Both the position numbers and the translations under genes were made by a program. A stretch of 64,000 bases of DNA from Escherichia phage LYE-01: sequence record PQ303785.1; one strand, written 5' to 3'. This document shows, one piece after another, positions 9,911-57,151 of this stretch. Every line of letters starts with the position of its first letter. Positions within the stretch are counted from its first letter, which is position 1. The notes under the pieces were generated by a model, which did no database searches, was not told where the DNA came from, and saw only the letters and a list, made by a program, of their open reading frames with translations.

Positions 9911-10849
9911 ATGTACAATATTAAATGCCTGACCAAAAACGAACAAGCTGAAATTGTTAAACTGTATTCAAGTGGTAATTACACCCAACAGGAATTGGCT
10001 GATTGGCAAGGTGTATCGGTTGACACAATCCGTCGTGTTTTGAAAAATGCTGAAGAAGCTGAGCGTTCCAAAGTTACTATTAGCGGTGATATTACAGTTA
10101 AAGTTAAGAGTGATGTAGCTATTGCTTCAGTTGCTAAATCTGACATTATTTGGAATGCATCTAAAAAATTCATTTCAATTACTGTTGATGGCGTAACTTA
10201 CAACGCAACTCCTAATACTCATTCAAACTTCCAGGAAATTCTTAATCTGCTTGTTGCAGATAAATTGGAAGAAGCGGCACAAAAAATTAATGTTCGTCGC
10301 GCTGTTGAAAAATATATTTCCGGTGATGTTCGAATTGAAGGTGGAAGCCTGTTCTATCAAAATATTGAATTGCGGTCTGGTTTAGTTGATCGTATTCTCG
10401 ATTCGATGGAAAAAGGTGAAAACTTTGAATTTTATTTTCCGTTCTTGGAAAATCTGCTGGAAAACCCGAGCCAAAAAGCGGTATCTCGACTCTTTGATTT
10501 CTTGGTAGCAAACGATATTGAAATTACAGAAGACGGTTACTTCTATGCTTGGAAAGTAGTTCGCAGCAATTACTTTGACTGTCACTCAAATACCTTTGAT
10601 AACAGTCCTGGTAAAGTAGTTAAAATGCCACGTACTCGTGTGAATGACGATGATACACAAACTTGTTCTCGTGGTCTGCATGTGTGTTCTAAATCTTATA
10701 TTCGTCACTTTGGCAGTTCAACCAGTCGAGTTGTAAAAGTTAAAGTACATCCTCGCGATGTAGTATCAATTCCGATTGATTACAACGATGCTAAAATGCG
10801 TACCTGCCAATACGAAGTAATTGAAGACGTTACTGAACAATTTAAATAA
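9911..10849 (+). CDS. rIIB: rIIB protein
   Basis: 312 aa, MYNIKCLTKNEQAEI N-terminus, follows rIIA. Confidence 0.9.
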   Translation: MYNIKCLTKNEQAEIVKLYSSGNYTQQELADWQGVSVDTIRRVLKNAEEAERSKVTISGDITVKVKSDVAIASVAKSDIIWNASKKFISITVDGVTYNATPNTHSNFQEILNLLVADKLEEAAQKINVRRAVEKYISGDVRIEGGSLFYQNIELRSGLVDRILDSMEKGENFEFYFPFLENLLENPSQKAVSRLFDFLVANDIEITEDGYFYAWKVVRSNYFDCHSNTFDNSPGKVVKMPRTRVNDDDTQTCSRGLHVCSKSYIRHFGSSTSRVVKVKVHPRDVVSIPIDYNDAKMRTCQYEVIEDVTEQFK

Positions 10850-10863
10850 GGGCTTCGGCCCTT
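10849..10863 (+). terminator. hairpin after rIIB
   Basis: AGGGC-TTCG-GCCCT; weak U-run. Confidence 0.45.
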
Positions 10864-10877
10864 AACTAAGGAAAATT

Positions 10878-11072: not shown

Positions 11073-11076
11073 AATA

Positions 11077-11099
11077 AGGGGCTTCGGCCCTTTTGTTTT
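11077..11099 (+). terminator. rho-independent terminator
   Basis: GGGC-TTCG-GCCC then TTTTGTTTT. Confidence 0.6.
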
Positions 11100-12332: not shown

Positions 12333-12427
12333 AAATTTTGAATTCTGTACTTATTGCTTGTGCGTGGTGGGTTGCGCAAGTTTCGGCAGTAGTGATTGGT
12401 ATTCACATTTATTACGAATATTTTTAA
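12329..12427 (+). CDS. hydrophobic micro-ORF (32 aa)
   Basis: MKILNSVLIACAWWVAQVSAVVIGIHIYYEYF; start overlaps previous stop. Confidence 0.35.
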   Translation: MKILNSVLIACAWWVAQVSAVVIGIHIYYEYF

Positions 12428-12434
12428 AAAAGTT

Positions 12435-12464
12435 GTTTACAAGACTGTTCCTCTGTGGTATTAT
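12435..12464 (+). promoter_or_regulatory. early promoter
   Basis: GTTTAC 12435-12440, TATTAT 12459-12464. Confidence 0.6.
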
Positions 12465-12492
12465 TACTCTATCAACTACGGAGGAACAGAAA

Positions 12493-12606
12493 ATGAAAAA
12501 GATTGTTAAAGCTATATGGAATGTAGTTATAATACTAGTAGTTTTGAGTATATTCCCAATCGTTTTAATGATTGATGTATTAAACGCTTACTTTGGATTT
12601 ATGTGA
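12493..12606 (+). CDS. hydrophobic micro-ORF (37 aa)
   Basis: MKKIVKAIWNVVIILVVLSIFPIVLMIDVL...; ATG after GGAGGAACAG and an early promoter. Confidence 0.45.
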   Translation: MKKIVKAIWNVVIILVVLSIFPIVLMIDVLNAYFGFM

Positions 12607-12613
12607 GGAAAAT

Positions 12614-12811
12614 ATGAAGCGTAAACGCAGTGCTTTTACATTTATTGAATGGTTTTTCGATAATATTTTTCCGGCTTTATTCATTTTCATGTTGATTTTC
12701 GCCTTAGGTTCTGTTGTAGTTGGAATCTATTTGATGGCAGTTGTCGGAATGGATATTCACCAAAATGGTTTAAAATCTGTGGTTGAAACAATTTGGAATG
12801 GTGTAAAATGA
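12614..12811 (+). CDS. small membrane protein (65 aa)
   Basis: ATG 12614 after GAGGA; MKRKRSAF then two hydrophobic helices. Confidence 0.5.
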   Translation: MKRKRSAFTFIEWFFDNIFPALFIFMLIFALGSVVVGIYLMAVVGMDIHQNGLKSVVETIWNGVK

Positions 12812-12918
12812 TGAATTTACTAAACATTTGGTTTTATATTCTTATGTTTTACATTGGCGCAAATATCCCATATTGGATGGGATGGTCAACAACTGCATTT
12901 GGATTTTATACTCCCTGA
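12808..12918 (+). CDS. hydrophobic micro-ORF (36 aa)
   Basis: MMNLLNIWFYILMFYIGANIPYWMGW...; overlaps previous stop. Confidence 0.35.
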   Translation: MMNLLNIWFYILMFYIGANIPYWMGWSTTAFGFYTP

Positions 12919-12926
12919 GGTGAATT

Positions 12927-13142
12927 ATGAAAATCTTTAAAGATGTAAAAGTTGGTGAAATTTTTTGCTTAGATAGTGGTGATCAGTTAATTCGTATTTC
13001 ACCTCTTAAGAGCACTAGCGAGAAAATGACGGTTAATGCTACTTTAGCAAATAACAGTAATGAACGTTTCTGTATTGAAAATGATACTGAAACTTATACT
13101 GTAGAAGAGTTCTGGGAATTGAGCGTCGCCTGCGACGATTAA
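12927..13142 (+). CDS. hypothetical 71-aa protein
   Basis: ORF track, GAGG SD. Confidence 0.5.
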   Translation: MKIFKDVKVGEIFCLDSGDQLIRISPLKSTSEKMTVNATLANNSNERFCIENDTETYTVEEFWELSVACDD

Positions 13143-13148
13143 TTTATC

Positions 13149-13170
13149 GGCCGTATGAATTCATACGGCC
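13149..13170 (+). terminator. perfect 22-nt palindrome before ndd
   Basis: GGCCGTATGAATTCATACGGCC (contains GAATTC); no U-run. Confidence 0.35.
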
Positions 13171-13202
13171 TTGGAGTAGAAAATAATTTAGAGGAAATTA
13201 AC

Positions 13203-13658
13203 ATGAAATATATGACTGTTACTGATTTGAATAATGCAGGCGCAACTGTTATTGGTACAATCAAGGGCGGTGAATGGGTTTTTGGAACTCCGCATAAAGA
13301 CATTTTGTCTAACCCTGGATTTTACTTTTTAGTGAGTAAATTTGGTGGTCCATTTGATAGTCCGTGTGTATCTGCACGATTTTATGTAGGTAATCAGCGT
13401 TCTAAGCAAGGATTCAGTGCAGTTCTAAGTCATATTCGTCAGCGTCGGTCTCAGCTTGCGCGTACTATTGCAAATAACAATGTTCCATACACAGTATTTT
13501 ATCTACCTTCTTCTAAGATGAAACCTCTGACGACGGGATTTGGAAAAGGTCAGTTAGCTTTAGCGTTTACTCGTAATCATCATTCTGAGTATCAAACGCT
13601 TGAAGAAATGAACCGTATGTTGGCTGATAACTTTAAATTTGTTTTGCAGGCATATTAA
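13203..13658 (+). CDS. ndd: nucleoid disruption protein Ndd
   Basis: From ATG 13203 (after GAGGA) 151 aa equals T4 Ndd; track start 13155 lies inside a palindrome. Confidence 0.7.
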
Positions 13659-13738
13659 TGAGTAATTTCCATAACGAACATGTGATGCAGTTTTATCGTA
13701 ATAATCTTAAAACTAAAGGCGTCTTCGGACGCCAGTGA
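13658..13738 (+). CDS. stp: Stp peptide (26 aa)
   Basis: [26 protein letters not shown] matches my recollection of T4 Stp; below track cutoff. Confidence 0.75.
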
Positions 13739-13745
13739 GGAAAAT

Positions 13746-13901
13746 GTGAATATTGCAAAATTATTAGGAGTTATTTCATTTATTTGTTGGATAGTAGCAT
13801 GTGTTTTAACTATCTGTATTGATGCCAGCAGCGTGTTTTCGCAAGCTTTAGCTCAGGGTATGTGTGCATATTTAACATTTGCGTTGTTATCTAATGATTA
13901 A
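13746..13901 (+). CDS. ac: Ac-like small membrane protein (51 aa, GTG start)
   Basis: 51 codons from GTG 13746; single hydrophobic helix; position between stp and gene 52. Confidence 0.55.
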   Translation: MNIAKLLGVISFICWIVACVLTICIDASSVFSQALAQGMCAYLTFALLSND

Positions 13902-14034
13902 GAAAATCTTGGGCTATTCATTAGCCCTTGCTACTTTATTGGTAGCACTATATTATGGAGTAATGTTCGGATTAATTCAAGTCGTGCTTTTCATTTCTGA
14001 TGTTATTATGGCACTACATTCACTAGTATGGTAA
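13894..14034 (+). CDS. small membrane protein (46 aa; 52.1 position)
   Basis: MIKKILGYSLALATLLVALYYGVMFGLIQVV...; ends 5 nt before gene 52. Confidence 0.4.
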   Translation: MIKKILGYSLALATLLVALYYGVMFGLIQVVLFISDVIMALHSLVW

Positions 14035-14038
14035 ATTT

Positions 14039-15367
14039 ATGCAACTGAATAATCGCGATTTAAAAAGTATCATTGATAATGAAGCATTGGCTTATGCTAT
14101 GTACACGGTTGAAAATCGTGCTATTCCAAATATGATTGATGGATTTAAGCCAGTTCAACGATTTGTTATCGCTCGAGCTCTTGATTTGGCGCGGGGAAAT
14201 AAAGATAAGTTTCACAAACTCGCTTCTATTGCAGGTGGTGTAGCTGACCTTGGATATCATCATGGCGAAAACTCTGCACAAGATGCGGGGGCTTTGATGG
14301 CTAACACTTGGAATAATAACTTTCCTTTGTTAGATGGTCAAGGAAACTTTGGTTCTCGTACCGTTCAAAAAGCAGCGGCAAGCCGTTATATTTTTGCTCG
14401 TGTAAGTAAAAATTTCTATAACGTATATAAAGATACTGAATATGCTCCGGTACATCAAGATAAAGAACACATTCCTCCTGCTTTCTATTTGCCTATTATT
14501 CCTACTGTTCTTCTTAATGGTGTTTCCGGTATTGCAACTGGTTATGCAACTTACATTCTTCCTCATAGTGTTTCTTCTGTCAAGAAAGCTGTACTACAAG
14601 CTCTTCAAGGAAAGAAAGTAACTAAACCGAAGGTAGAATTCCCAGAATTTCGTGGTGAAGTCGTTGAGATTGACGGGCAATATGAAATTCGTGGAACATA
14701 TAAGTTTACTTCACGAACTCAAATGAATATCACTGAGATTCCGTATAAGTATGATCGTGAAACTTATGTGAGTAAAATCTTAGACCCGCTTGAAGATAAG
14801 GGCTTCATTACATGGGATGATGCTTGCGGTGAGCATGGTTTTGGCTTTAAAGTTAAATTCCGCAAAGAATATTCTTTGAGCGATAACGAAGAAGAACGCC
14901 ATGCAAAAATTATGAAAGACTTTGGGTTGATTGAGCGTCGTTCCCAAAATATTACAGTCATCAACGAGAAAGGAAAGTTACAAGTTTACGATAACGTAGT
15001 TGATTTAATTAAAGACTTCGTTGAAGTTCGTAAAACTTATGTCCAAAAACGAATTGATAACAAAATCAAAGAAACTGAATCAGCATTTCGTTTAGCCTTT
15101 GCCAAGGCGCATTTCATTAAGAAAGTAATTTCAGGTGAAATCGTTGTACAGGGTAAAACTCGTAAAGAACTGACCGAAGAACTTTCTAAAATTGATATGT
15201 ATTCTTCTTATGTTGATAAACTAGTTGGAATGAATATTTTTCATATGACTTCCGACGAAGCAAAGAAACTTGCTGAAGAAGCTAAAGCTAAGAAAGAAGA
15301 AAACGAATATTGGAAAACTACTGATGTAGTTACAGAATACACCAAAGATTTAGAGGAAATCAAATGA
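14039..15367 (+). CDS. 52: DNA topoisomerase II medium subunit (GyrA-like)
   Basis: 442 aa; breakage-reunion domain motifs; T4 gp52 length. Confidence 0.9.
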   Translation: MQLNNRDLKSIIDNEALAYAMYTVENRAIPNMIDGFKPVQRFVIARALDLARGNKDKFHKLASIAGGVADLGYHHGENSAQDAGALMANTWNNNFPLLDGQGNFGSRTVQKAAASRYIFARVSKNFYNVYKDTEYAPVHQDKEHIPPAFYLPIIPTVLLNGVSGIATGYATYILPHSVSSVKKAVLQALQGKKVTKPKVEFPEFRGEVVEIDGQYEIRGTYKFTSRTQMNITEIPYKYDRETYVSKILDPLEDKGFITWDDACGEHGFGFKVKFRKEYSLSDNEEERHAKIMKDFGLIERRSQNITVINEKGKLQVYDNVVDLIKDFVEVRKTYVQKRIDNKIKETESAFRLAFAKAHFIKKVISGEIVVQGKTRKELTEELSKIDMYSSYVDKLVGMNIFHMTSDEAKKLAEEAKAKKEENEYWKTTDVVTEYTKDLEEIK

Positions 15368-39740: not shown

Positions 39741-41328
<1,588 letters not shown>

Positions 41329-42763: not shown

Positions 42764-43984
<1,221 letters not shown>

Positions 43985-43985
<1 letters not shown>

Positions 43986-48141: not shown

Positions 48142-48146
48142 GTTGA

Positions 48147-48170
48147 GGACTCCTTCGGGAGTCCTTTTTT
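48147..48170 (+). terminator. rho-independent terminator
   Basis: GGACTCC-TTCG-GGAGTCC then T6. Confidence 0.8.
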
Positions 48171-49026: not shown

Positions 49027-49042
49027 AGGGGCTTCGGCCCCT
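49027..49042 (+). terminator. hairpin AGGGGC-TTCG-GCCCCT
   Basis: GC stem with UUCG loop; no U-run. Confidence 0.4.
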
Positions 49043-52759: not shown

Positions 52760-52944
52760 AAGCTTACTTAGAAACAATTGTCGTGGCTCAAAAAGAAGGT
52801 GGAGATGTTTCTACTTCGGTATCACAAGTCATTCTCGAATTTGTAGATGCATATGCTTATAATAAATTTACAGAAACATTTGATGCCTACGAAAAAGGTC
52901 CAAAGTTTGAAATATATCGTACTCTCTTACCACTAGATTATTAA
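52756..52944 (+). CDS. hypothetical 62-aa protein
   Basis: ORF track; followed by hairpin terminator. Confidence 0.45.
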   Translation: MKAYLETIVVAQKEGGDVSTSVSQVILEFVDAYAYNKFTETFDAYEKGPKFEIYRTLLPLDY

Positions 52945-52960
52945 AGGCCTTCGGGCCTTT
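52943..52960 (+). terminator. hairpin terminator, identical to the one at 5566
   Basis: AAAGGCC-TTCG-GGCCTTT then AATTTT; precedes the alt late promoter. Confidence 0.55.
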
Positions 52961-52965
52961 AATTT

Positions 52966-55093: not shown

Positions 55094-57151
55094 ATGGAAC
55101 TTATTACAGAATTATTTGACGGCGCTTCGGCGCCGGTTGTTAACTTAAATCCTAAGCATAAAATACCTCAAATTTTTGCTATTCAAGCAGGCGAAGAAAG
55201 CGTGCTTCCTGGATTTAGATTTTGTACATACACCTCTGGCGGTGATACAAATAAAAACGTTAAGCCAGGCGATAAAATGATGCATATCGTAATGATAGGT
55301 GTCAATGAGAAACTATCATTAGTTAAACTTAGAAACTTGGGTGGAAATCCAATTGGTGTCATTAATGCGGTTTTTGATACTGCTCTTCAGACAATGAAAC
55401 AATACAAAATTGACGCATGCTTATTCCGCGTACTAAAGAGTAAAACAAATGGTGCAGCTCGTCAAATGCAAGTTATTGCCGACCGTTTAGTACGTACTAA
55501 AGGAGCAGGTCGATATGTTCTTTTAAAGGAAATCTGGGATTACGATAAAAAGTACGCATATATTATGGTTTACCGTAAAAATGCTAATTTAGAAGACATT
55601 CCAGGTGTACCTCCTATTTCAACTGAGTTATTCACAAAAGTTGAATCAAAGGTTGGTGATGTTTATGTAGATGTTAAAACAGGTAATGCTGTTCCTAAAG
55701 CTGTTGCTGTTGCTGCTTCTATTGCTTTAGAAAATGATAAGCGCACGGATCAAGCTGTTATTCAGAAAACTAAAATTAGTCGTCGGTTAGCAGCACAAGC
55801 TCAATATTCTACTGTCGATGCTTCACTTCAGGGTGATAGCTTCGCTGCTAAGAAATATCAAGAGTTTGAATCTAAAGTTCCGGTATATAAAGCAGAAGGA
55901 CCAATGAACTCTGGCGTTATTCAGGTTGGTTCAAACTTCAGCAAAGGAGCTATCGGTGGTATGAGAAGTGCTTCCCGTTTTAAATCTAGTGATTATGAAT
56001 TAGAAAGCTTCCGAAATCATATTGCATTGGCTCATGCGCGTTTACGTGATCCATCTATCAAGTTACAGAGCGATATATCATATCAAGGTTCTCAAGAATA
56101 TTTAAAGAATAAAGAATTTTTTGATTATAAAACTGATAAAATTTTAAGTGATCTTGCTGACATTAATATTTCTAATAGCTTTGATGTTATTAAGAAAATT
56201 GTCAATGATTTAGTTAAAGGTTCTAAAGCCACACCAGATGAAAAGGTAGCTATTGTTCAATTTGTCATGAATGGCGTTTATAAATTGATTAATGAGTCTG
56301 CTTCTCAAGCGTATGAATATGCAAGTACTGAAGTAACTCCAAAAGGATTAACTCAGGCTGAGTCTGATGTAATTGAAGATTATTGTGCAGATTCATATGT
56401 TGAAATGAACTCGTTCCTTTTAGGTAAACCGGATTCTACTCGTGAAGAATACATGGAACGAGCTATTAAACACATCGAGACAATGGATTCTGCCTTTGCC
56501 AAAGGATCAGTTCTTCCTCCAGGAACTACACTTTACCGTGGACAAGAAGTTACCTTTAAAACTTTACGTCATAATATTGAAAATAAAATGTTCTACTTCA
56601 AGAACTTCGTATCCACATCGCTTAAACCAAATATCTTCGGTGAGTATGGTAAAAACTATATGGCTCTAGATGATTCCGGCGCAGTATTTTCTGGTGAAGG
56701 AGAAGGTTCAGTTGACGCAGAAGATTTGATGCATATGGGCAGTCACTCTGCTTATGCGAATGAAGATGCTGAAACTAGCGTGGGTATGGTAATTAAAGGA
56801 GCTGAGCGAATCAAAGTTATCGTTCCAGGACATTTATCAGGATTTCCATCAGAAGCTGAAGTTATTTTACCGCGTGGAATTTTGCTGAAGATTAATAAAG
56901 TGAGTACGTACATGATGAAAGAAACTGCTTATAATAAGTATCTAATCGAAGGCACAATCGTTCCTCCTTCTGAACAATTAGAAGAATCGGTATATGATGG
57001 CGACCATCTAATGGAAACTGGTGAAGTTCGTCCAATGGCTGGATTTAATCAATTCCTTGTAGAAGAATCAAAAGAAGAGGAAAACGAAGTTTCTCAAATC
57101 TTGGCTTCTTTGGTTAACATCAACGGAATGTCTAAAAAGTTCAAGATGTAG
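55094..57151 (+). CDS. Alt paralog, second ADP-ribosyltransferase
   Basis: 685 aa; N-terminal ~200 aa nearly collinear with Alt; YRGQ / FVSTSLKP / EAEVILPRG motifs intact. Confidence 0.75.
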   Translation: MELITELFDGASAPVVNLNPKHKIPQIFAIQAGEESVLPGFRFCTYTSGGDTNKNVKPGDKMMHIVMIGVNEKLSLVKLRNLGGNPIGVINAVFDTALQTMKQYKIDACLFRVLKSKTNGAARQMQVIADRLVRTKGAGRYVLLKEIWDYDKKYAYIMVYRKNANLEDIPGVPPISTELFTKVESKVGDVYVDVKTGNAVPKAVAVAASIALENDKRTDQAVIQKTKISRRLAAQAQYSTVDASLQGDSFAAKKYQEFESKVPVYKAEGPMNSGVIQVGSNFSKGAIGGMRSASRFKSSDYELESFRNHIALAHARLRDPSIKLQSDISYQGSQEYLKNKEFFDYKTDKILSDLADINISNSFDVIKKIVNDLVKGSKATPDEKVAIVQFVMNGVYKLINESASQAYEYASTEVTPKGLTQAESDVIEDYCADSYVEMNSFLLGKPDSTREEYMERAIKHIETMDSAFAKGSVLPPGTTLYRGQEVTFKTLRHNIENKMFYFKNFVSTSLKPNIFGEYGKNYMALDDSGAVFSGEGEGSVDAEDLMHMGSHSAYANEDAETSVGMVIKGAERIKVIVPGHLSGFPSEAEVILPRGILLKINKVSTYMMKETAYNKYLIEGTIVPPSEQLEESVYDGDHLMETGEVRPMAGFNQFLVEESKEEENEVSQILASLVNINGMSKKFKM

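Follow-up and report, generated by a model that had tools for sequence, protein, structure and literature searches.

Orthologues of the T4 micro-genes stp, ac and 52.1 between ndd and gene 52 of Escherichia phage LYE-01

Overview of the ndd–52 region

The window analyzed here is a stretch of 64,000 nucleotides (nt) from Escherichia phage LYE-01 (sequence record PQ303785.1), a Tequatrovirus, i.e., a T4-like phage, and this report deals with a string of very small genes located on its plus strand at 13658–14034, between the nucleoid disruption gene ndd and topoisomerase gene 52. Based on comparison with T4, these genes are very probably (at a probability of about 0.93) the orthologues of stp, ac and 52.1, with the functions known from T4 and with an expression logic built on translational coupling and an mRNA hairpin. 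The region 13203–15367 (+) is collinear with T4 ndd–stp–ac–52.1–52, and the T4 counterpart of 13203–14034 (NC_000866 positions 165209–166040) has the same gene order, lengths and overlaps, all on one strand; the comparison with the T4 stp and ac entries proposed in an earlier note on this DNA, which was made from the sequence alone, thus returned orthologues of all three micro-genes. Megablast of 13100–14100 retrieved 562 phage records, mostly Escherichia, Shigella or Yersinia Tequatrovirus, at 90–99% identity, while for a 24-kb piece of the window no match that was both near-complete and above ~97% identity was found in the megablast collection.

The flanking genes are ndd (13203–13658, +), encoding a protein of 151 amino acids (aa) that matches Pfam Phage_T4_Ndd (E = 2.6e-88) and shares 143 of 151 residues with T4 Ndd, and gene 52 (14039–15367, +), encoding the 442-aa medium subunit of DNA topoisomerase II (Pfam DNA_topoisoIV, E = 1.6e-76; 440/442 residues as in T4 gp52). 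At the default cut-off of 60 aa, no open reading frame (ORF) is listed between 13659 and 14038, which makes it plausible that the micro-genes were missed by the ORF track, as the earlier note had stated; here, ORFs were read over window 13000–14700 with a threshold of ≥20 aa. The description of the string as overlapping holds for ndd/stp (1 nt) and ac/52.1 (8 nt), but stp/ac and 52.1/52 are tightly packed with gaps of 7 and 4 nt, respectively. The Pfam and PHROG matches of the micro-ORFs have E-values of 1e-21 to 1e-25 and the differences from T4 are mostly synonymous; judged by their sequences, the micro-ORFs are far from chance. In the GenBank records of G28 and BP32, the closest phages sharing the GTG start of ac described below, zero coding sequences are annotated between ndd and gene 52.

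The stp gene and its connection to PrrC

The first micro-gene, stp (13658–13738, +), begins at an ATG (13658–13660) that shares one base with the ndd stop codon TAA (13656–13658), resulting in a TAATG junction. Both the 26-aa ORF starting at this overlap and its identification as Stp, which the earlier note had offered, are borne out: 26 out of 26 residues are the same as in T4 Stp, and the peptide matches Pfam PF08133 (Nuclease_act, "anticodon nuclease activator") over its full length (1–26) with 75.3 bits at a cut-off of 25 (E = 2e-21), as well as phrog_6763 (E = 4e-21). The stp genes of the two phages differ by 3 nt, and all three differences are synonymous. The N-terminal 18 residues, where the T4 loss-of-function mutations map, are kept along with the rest of residues 1–26, and the gene lies in the expected place, right after ndd and upstream of ac, 52.1 and 52. 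The grand average of hydropathy (GRAVY) of the peptide is −1.03.

That stp is a real gene is beyond doubt from the genetics and biochemistry of T4, where Stp was found to be both necessary and sufficient for activation of the anticodon nuclease, and to inhibit EcoprrI and EcoR124I (PMC3014915). Suppressor mutations cluster at residues 4–14, and removal of the eight C-terminal codons lowers the activity only moderately (PMC3014915). Inhibition of type Ic restriction by T4 Stp, together with the unmasking of tRNALys cleavage by PrrC, has been reported (PMC3014915, PMC1484252). The peptide had been described in the earlier note as an activator of the host anticodon nuclease PrrC; the identity stands, but Stp is better regarded as an EcoprrI inhibitor that unmasks PrrC than as a direct activator (PMC3014915). 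In T4, the type Ic restriction enzyme EcoprrI is bound and inhibited by Stp; in prr+ hosts this inhibition unmasks the associated anticodon nuclease PrrC, which cuts tRNALys, and the cut tRNA is then healed by Pnk and sealed by Rnl1. With no residue changed from T4 Stp, the peptide of LYE-01 may be expected to have the same EcoprrI/PrrC activity. Both members of this tRNA repair pair are encoded in the window: RNA ligase 1 (T4 gene 63) by an ORF at 40168–41328 (+), given with an unrefined start codon and matching Pfam RNA_lig_T4_1 and T4_Rnl1_C, and polynucleotide kinase/3'-phosphatase (T4 pseT) at 43077–43985 (+), matching Pfam AAA_33 and HAD_PNKP.

The ac gene and its GTG start

The acridine sensitivity ("resistance") gene ac occupies 13746–13901 (+) and comprises 51 codons. 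Its product belongs to phrog_2501 (E = 5.4e-25), has no Pfam family, and has the features of an Ac-family member, being a hydrophobic (GRAVY 1.41), ~50-aa protein encoded between stp and 52.1, for which a single-sequence AlphaFold2 (AF2) model predicts two helices (3–24 and 29–50) with a predicted local distance difference test (pLDDT) value of 77. Compared to T4, the gene contains five synonymous differences and one non-synonymous difference (V46A), plus a changed start codon. The GTG-initiated 51-codon hydrophobic ORF that had been proposed for the ac position is thus present, but the GTG itself is not the T4 state: the start reads AATATGAAT in T4 and in every other relative examined, and AATGTGAAT in the window. 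As read from the sequence, the ATG>GTG change also produces an out-of-frame ATG-TGA start-stop at 13744–13749 (+).

Few phages have the GTG allele. A 55-nt megablast query with the changed base at its centre, a design that seeds only on sequences with the G, returned 3 records (G28 twice and BP32), compared with ~560 records matching the region, and the exact pattern had 0 matches in IMG/VR. Within ac, the window and G28/BP32 differ by four synonymous and zero non-synonymous changes, a weak argument that selection still acts on the GUG-initiated gene. In bacteria, GUG does function as a start codon, and the GTG start probably lowers ac translation without abolishing it. Deletion of ac renders T4 resistant to acridines, and expression of Ac sensitises E. 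coli (bioRxiv 10.1101/2025.06.30.662393; PMC13250531); that Ac acts by blocking AcrAB-TolC efflux is an unproven proposal of the preprint (bioRxiv 10.1101/2025.06.30.662393). By transfer from T4, Ac would be a two-helix micro-protein of the inner membrane that makes the infection acridine-sensitive, at a level of expression that is uncertain in LYE-01 given the GTG.

Gene 52.1

The third micro-gene, 52.1 (13894–14034, +), encodes a 46-aa hydrophobic protein with 45/46 residues identical to T4 gp52.1. The mechanical ORF call begins upstream, at TTG 13879; read from ATG 13894, the gene agrees with the 46-codon hydrophobic ORF, overlapping the preceding one, that the earlier note had placed in the 52.1 position. 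The ATG lies inside the last ac codons (ATGATTAA), giving an overlap of 8 nt. The product matches Pfam DUF7396 (PF24129) with 81.9 bits at a cut-off of 27 as well as phrog_3595, and the gene is located directly upstream of gene 52. The AF2 model of gp52.1 is a single helix spanning residues 2–45 (pLDDT 94), and the GRAVY value is 1.68. Of 36 IMG/VR loci recovered with Ndd, almost all carry a 45–46-aa homologue of 52.1 immediately in front of gene 52; adjacency to gene 52 was noted in ~30 related loci besides the window. All homologues have the invariant motif YYG..[YF]G....VLFISD.I....S..W. In the alignment across genera, the variable columns by codon position number 26/16/39 of 46, and the other two frames hold stops. 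The case for 52.1 as a gene is an evolutionary one, and gp52.1 is a conserved hydrophobic protein with a single predicted helix; the AF2 models of Ac and gp52.1 do no more than confirm that both are helical and hydrophobic.

A promoter-like sequence, TTGCTA-N17-TATTAT, is found within 52.1 at 13928–13956 (+). The same site in T4 reads GCTGCTTTA...TATTAC and includes a TGCTT Mot-box-like word; the A at 13933 of the window both alters this word and causes the A14T substitution in gp52.1. The site may be a middle promoter for gene 52.

Ribosome-binding sites and probable translational coupling

Duplex energies with the anti-Shine–Dalgarno sequence (anti-SD) are −6.0 kcal/mol for ndd, −6.5 for ac, −2.5 for stp and −2.8 for gene 52, and no Shine–Dalgarno (SD) site was found for 52.1. 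The ac SD, GAGGA (13737–13741, +), overlaps the stp stop codon (UGAGGA) and ends 4–5 nt before GTG 13746. Given its weak SD, stp is probably translated in a manner coupled to ndd termination. From the fact that only ndd and ac have strong SD sites, together with the TAATG, ATGATTAA and TAA-N4-ATG junctions, it is likely that translation is coupled within two units, ndd>stp and ac>52.1>52. The C(UUCG)G hairpin described below would then stand at the boundary of the two units, just upstream of the ac ribosome-binding site.

The C(UUCG)G hairpin at the stp/ac junction

Hairpins of this type, in which a UUCG loop is closed by C-G, are said to have been described first in T4 mRNA, by Tuerk et al. 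in 1988, as "extraordinarily stable". The GGCGTC-TTCG-GACGCC hairpin pointed out in the earlier note at the 3' end of stp lies exactly at 13718–13733 (+), where it has a 6-bp stem, covers stp codons 21–26 and ends 2 nt before the stp stop codon, so that it is translated as G-V-F-G-R-Q. Its predicted folding energy is −10.0 kcal/mol (z = −4.3), and one of 200 shuffled sequences folds equally well. The T4 sequence is identical, and the hairpin is retained in all of the 22 distinct T4-like stp sequences (8 peptide variants), in which C3>T, A12>G and C16>T are the only stem changes, each leading to a G.U pair, and which have either UUCG or UUUG as the loop. A C-G-closed UUCG loop is an exceptionally stable tetraloop (PMC4371310). 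A permissive Rfam search of 12800–14300 placed no known RNA family on the hairpin and gave only a chance snoRNA match (E = 0.47).

Eight C(UUCG)G hairpins with stems of ≥6 pairs are present on the plus strand of the window, and 6/8 are located just after stop codons. Three intercistronic ones (10847–10864, 11076–11093 and 49027–49042, +) are followed 3–8 nt later by AGGAAAA and, a few nt on, by ATG, a hairpin-SD-start module that the stp/ac junction shares. Two others (48145–48166 and 52940–52963, +) have 9–10 bp stems and T-runs on their 3' side, and resemble true intrinsic terminators on the early strand. The stp hairpin shares with this class the C-G-closed UUCG on a stable stem but is not intercistronic; apart from it, the sole C(UUCG)G hairpin within coding sequence in the window is CGGCGC-TTCG-GCGCCG at 55120–55135 (+), ~27 nt into an ORF of 685 aa (55094–57151) from its 5' end. 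By analogy with the same-type intercistronic hairpins elsewhere in the genome, the stp hairpin, read by the ribosome as the dispensable C-terminus of Stp, would most likely act as a barrier or stabiliser in RNA stability or processing.

Two further arguments about the hairpin were considered and set aside. The hairpin alone does not explain the conservation of the Stp C-terminus, since phages of the genus Kagunavirus keep the GVFG residues by different codons and without a hairpin. The conservation of synonymous sites is not usable as evidence for the hairpin, as the whole of stp is near-identical in nucleotide sequence between genera whose Ndd proteins are only ~62% identical, which points to recent exchange of stp.

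Alternative interpretations

Several points weigh against the interpretation given above. All of the gene functions are carried over from T4 by sequence identity, and the coupling model is derived solely from SD strength and spacing. In a T4 omics supplement (PMC9697503), both class columns give "early" for Ndd, but for stp, ac and 52.1 one column gives "early" and the other "NA". The "NA" of these three most likely means that the protein was undetected and that there was early RNA only, so that even for T4 it is mainly genetics and conservation that speak for translation of ac and 52.1; a literature search for T4 ribosome-profiling or small-protein evidence found nothing useful. The 4:0 ratio in the GTG-ac phages could instead reflect short-tract recombination. 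As for the hairpin, no compensatory double changes were found in the stem among the 22 T4-like sequences, a comparison in which covariation is uninformative because single transitions give G.U pairs automatically, and, as the Kagunavirus peptides indicate, the Stp C-terminus appears to be constrained as a peptide too.

The omics table, the lack of an SD in front of ATG 13894 and the promoter-like match at 13928–13956 would all agree with the view that some of the small ORFs are untranslated and that the 46-codon ORF is a gene 52 leader conserved for RNA or promoter reasons. This view is hardly credible: the frame, length and motif of 52.1 are retained down to ~50% identity, third codon positions vary most while both other frames are closed by stops, a curated Pfam family (DUF7396) exists for this very ORF, and in many genera its ATG falls within the stop region of the ORF before it, which is the classical arrangement for translational coupling. 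The absence of an SD for 52.1 also bears on a second possibility, namely, that ac of LYE-01 is a natural loss-of-function, acridine-resistant allele, in which the GTG and the out-of-frame ATG-TGA silence the gene and polarity lowers the coupled 52.1. The rarity of the allele (G28 in two records and BP32, versus ~560 records, with none in IMG/VR) would fit, as would the fact that ac is non-essential and that ac-null phages are viable and acridine-resistant (bioRxiv 10.1101/2025.06.30.662393). Silencing is nevertheless unlikely, given that the ORF is intact with V46A as its only amino acid change relative to T4, that the three GTG-bearing phages differ in ac solely by the four synonymous changes, and that the GUG, placed 4–5 nt past a strong SD (−6.5 kcal/mol), is in a workable initiation context.

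It is quite improbable, although suggested by the G28 record ("putative transcriptional terminator, -10.30"), that the hairpin at 13718–13733 is a transcription terminator acting on the early (+) strand or on antisense transcription of the minus strand. A consensus scan does flag the minus-strand reading, in which the hairpin is followed by TTTAGTTTTA, but on the plus strand it is followed by AGUGAGGAAAAUGUG, without a U-tract; the plus strand runs on as AGUGAGGAAAAUG, and a T-run is found in the minus-strand reading only. The genuine terminator-like C(UUCG)G hairpins at 48145 and 52940, in contrast, carry long T-runs. Moreover, ac, 52.1 and gene 52 are located downstream, without a strong intervening promoter match on this strand. 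As regards the minus strand, its T-run corresponds to Stp codons 17–20 and is weakened in variant lineages (..AAATTAACT..), and the UUCG loop is exceptional in the plus sense only, the minus-strand loop being CGAA. Orthology of the three micro-genes to T4 stp, ac and 52.1, with GUG-initiated ac probably still translated and the hairpin at the boundary of the two proposed units, is the preferred interpretation of 13658–14034.

As the T4 reference already lists stp, ac and 52.1, the region brings no new kind of element, and the rare GTG start of ac is its single local peculiarity. Annotation by homology suffices for the three micro-genes of the window, and the Stp/PrrC and Ac stories gain nothing new from them; the GTG allele of ac, a coding hairpin at a conserved site of exchange that can be destroyed by synonymous changes, the proposed coupled units and the siphophage Stp homologues described below are small testable leads, not discoveries. 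The case does illustrate that annotation routinely passes over very small phage genes, even those of proven function, stp being unannotated in most of the inspected records.

The stp junction in T4-like relatives

In the relatives, the ndd–52 interval is an array of cassettes drawn from a few small-protein families, in which gp52.1 constantly adjoins gene 52. The junction TGAGGAAAATATG does not vary with the downstream gene; likewise, the hairpin-UGAGGAAAAUAUG joint is unchanged whichever gene comes next, and a phrog_9347 member can replace the Ac-family member in the slot directly after the junction. Stp occurs only where Ndd is at least ~62% identical to that of the window, and in most genera ndd is followed by a 57-aa membrane ORF (phrog_5941), which is absent from T4.

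Divergent Ac-family (phrog_2501) ORFs were observed after the stp junction in loci L097, L098, L102, L011 and L024 (with protein starts such as MKFVHG.., MNILQGF.. and MLNLAIA..), and have the common motif [ST]SV[FIA].Q where helix 2 begins. The Ac family is therefore broader than the ~459 Tequatrovirus records found by tblastn.

Two IMG/VR contigs of T4-like phages, L011 (1941–2618) and L014 (2109–2786), have stp twice, as different variants, in tandem with a truncated fragment of 52.1, an arrangement consistent with a duplicated or recombined stp-X-52.1 module, which fits recombination at the junction. An extra ORF of ~57 aa is present between ndd and stp in L002 (2058–2231, Shigella phage ESh26), L014 and L038; that of L014 is of the phrog_5941 membrane type, which in most non-T4 genera comes behind ndd.

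Stp homologues outside T4-like phages

The tblastn search with Stp also matched phages of 42–50 kb. Intact Stp-family ORFs of 25–27 aa, with their own SD and ATG, were found in virulent siphophages of Kagunavirus, Nouzillyvirus and Segzyvirus-like groups, namely, in the Kagunavirus members RP180 (L044 2001–2078; NC_048181 43056–43133) and Ro145clw (L045 2001–2078), in the Nouzillyvirus PH1062 (L046 2001–2078), in LPSTLL (L047 2001–2081), and in ~25 IMG/VR and metagenome contigs of 42–50 kb (L049–L113). The Segzyvirus-like peptide begins with MSNWHNEHIMQWYRRRIKAI. With scores of 35–70 bits, all of the siphophage homologues are above the Pfam PF08133 cut-off, and the N-terminal 18 residues, the functional core in T4, are conserved; the T4-type hairpin is absent from them.

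A tblastn search with the Segzyvirus-type peptide yielded 174 records at E ≤ 1e-3, nearly all unannotated at the site, and Bas81 is the sole record among them that names the Stp homologue as a PrrC activator. When 185,579 bacterial and archaeal genomes were scanned with a degenerate pattern, no Stp-like ORF was found, and a literature search for Stp homologues outside T4-like phages found nothing; in a 2025 review, Stp is still presented as a T4 peptide. With the siphophage homologues, the range known for anti-type-Ic restriction peptides, and for PrrC-type triggers, could become wider.

A more far-reaching proposal, speculative and as a whole rather doubtful, is that in T4-like phages the six final codons of Stp and the invariant UGAGGAAAAUAUG after them form a portable "hairpin-SD-AUG" joint, which would separate ndd>stp from ac>52.1>52 and serve as a swap site for membrane micro-genes (phrog_2501 or phrog_9347), and which in LYE-01 would have been mutated to AUGUGA/GUG, tuning down ac and perhaps 52.1 and 52; and, separately, that Stp is not specific to T4, and that virulent enterobacterial siphophages widely encode it as an anti-type-Ic-restriction peptide that mostly goes unannotated.

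Features upstream of ndd

The window region 12358–13142 (+) contains a string of small, mostly hydrophobic ORFs corresponding to the T4 ndd.1–ndd.6 region, all of which fall below the 60-aa cut-off except for the 71-aa homologue of ndd.1. At 12436–12464 (+), the sequence TTTACA-N17-TATTAT with an upstream TG fits the T4-type early consensus TTTACW-N17-TAYWAT, and represents a candidate promoter for the ndd.x–ndd–stp–ac operon. Between the ndd.1 homologue and ndd, a 9-bp hairpin, GGCCGTATG-AATT-CATACGGCC, was observed at 13149–13170 (+; −16.9 kcal/mol, z = −4.5), with no T-run after it.

Comparison with known systems

Compared to T4 stp (NP_049878), the gene of LYE-01 encodes the same peptide, occupies the same position after ndd, and is accompanied by the same TAATG overlap, the same 3' hairpin, and pnk and rnl1 in the genome; the three synonymous nucleotides are the only difference. 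T4 ac (NP_049877) is alike in its 51 codons, position, SD and 8-nt overlap with 52.1, and 49 out of the 50 residues after the initiator are identical, but it starts with ATG, whereas the ac of LYE-01 has GTG with the out-of-frame ATG-TGA, in addition to V46A. T4 gene 52.1 (NP_049876) likewise encodes 46 aa and adjoins gene 52, and A14T is the sole difference.

Like the C(UUCG)G hairpins at 10847, 11076 and 49027, the stp hairpin has a G+C-rich stem, is located on the early-transcribed strand and is followed by an AGGAAAA ribosome-binding site; members of the class are usually found after stop codons, whereas the stp hairpin lies inside coding sequence. The promoter–stem-loop (PeSL) cassettes of the hyperplastic regions of T4-type genomes (PMC2839356, PMC4122927) likewise have a conserved stem-loop at the junction where small ORFs are exchanged. 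Their early promoter has the consensus TTTACW-N17-TAYWAT (PMC4122927), and a consensus scan found no promoter-like site on the plus strand between 13187 and 13928; membership of the stp hairpin among the PeSL elements is ruled out, as no early promoter follows the stem-loop. In PeSL cassettes the stem-loop thus leads into an early promoter, whereas at the stp/ac junction it leads into an SD and a start codon instead.

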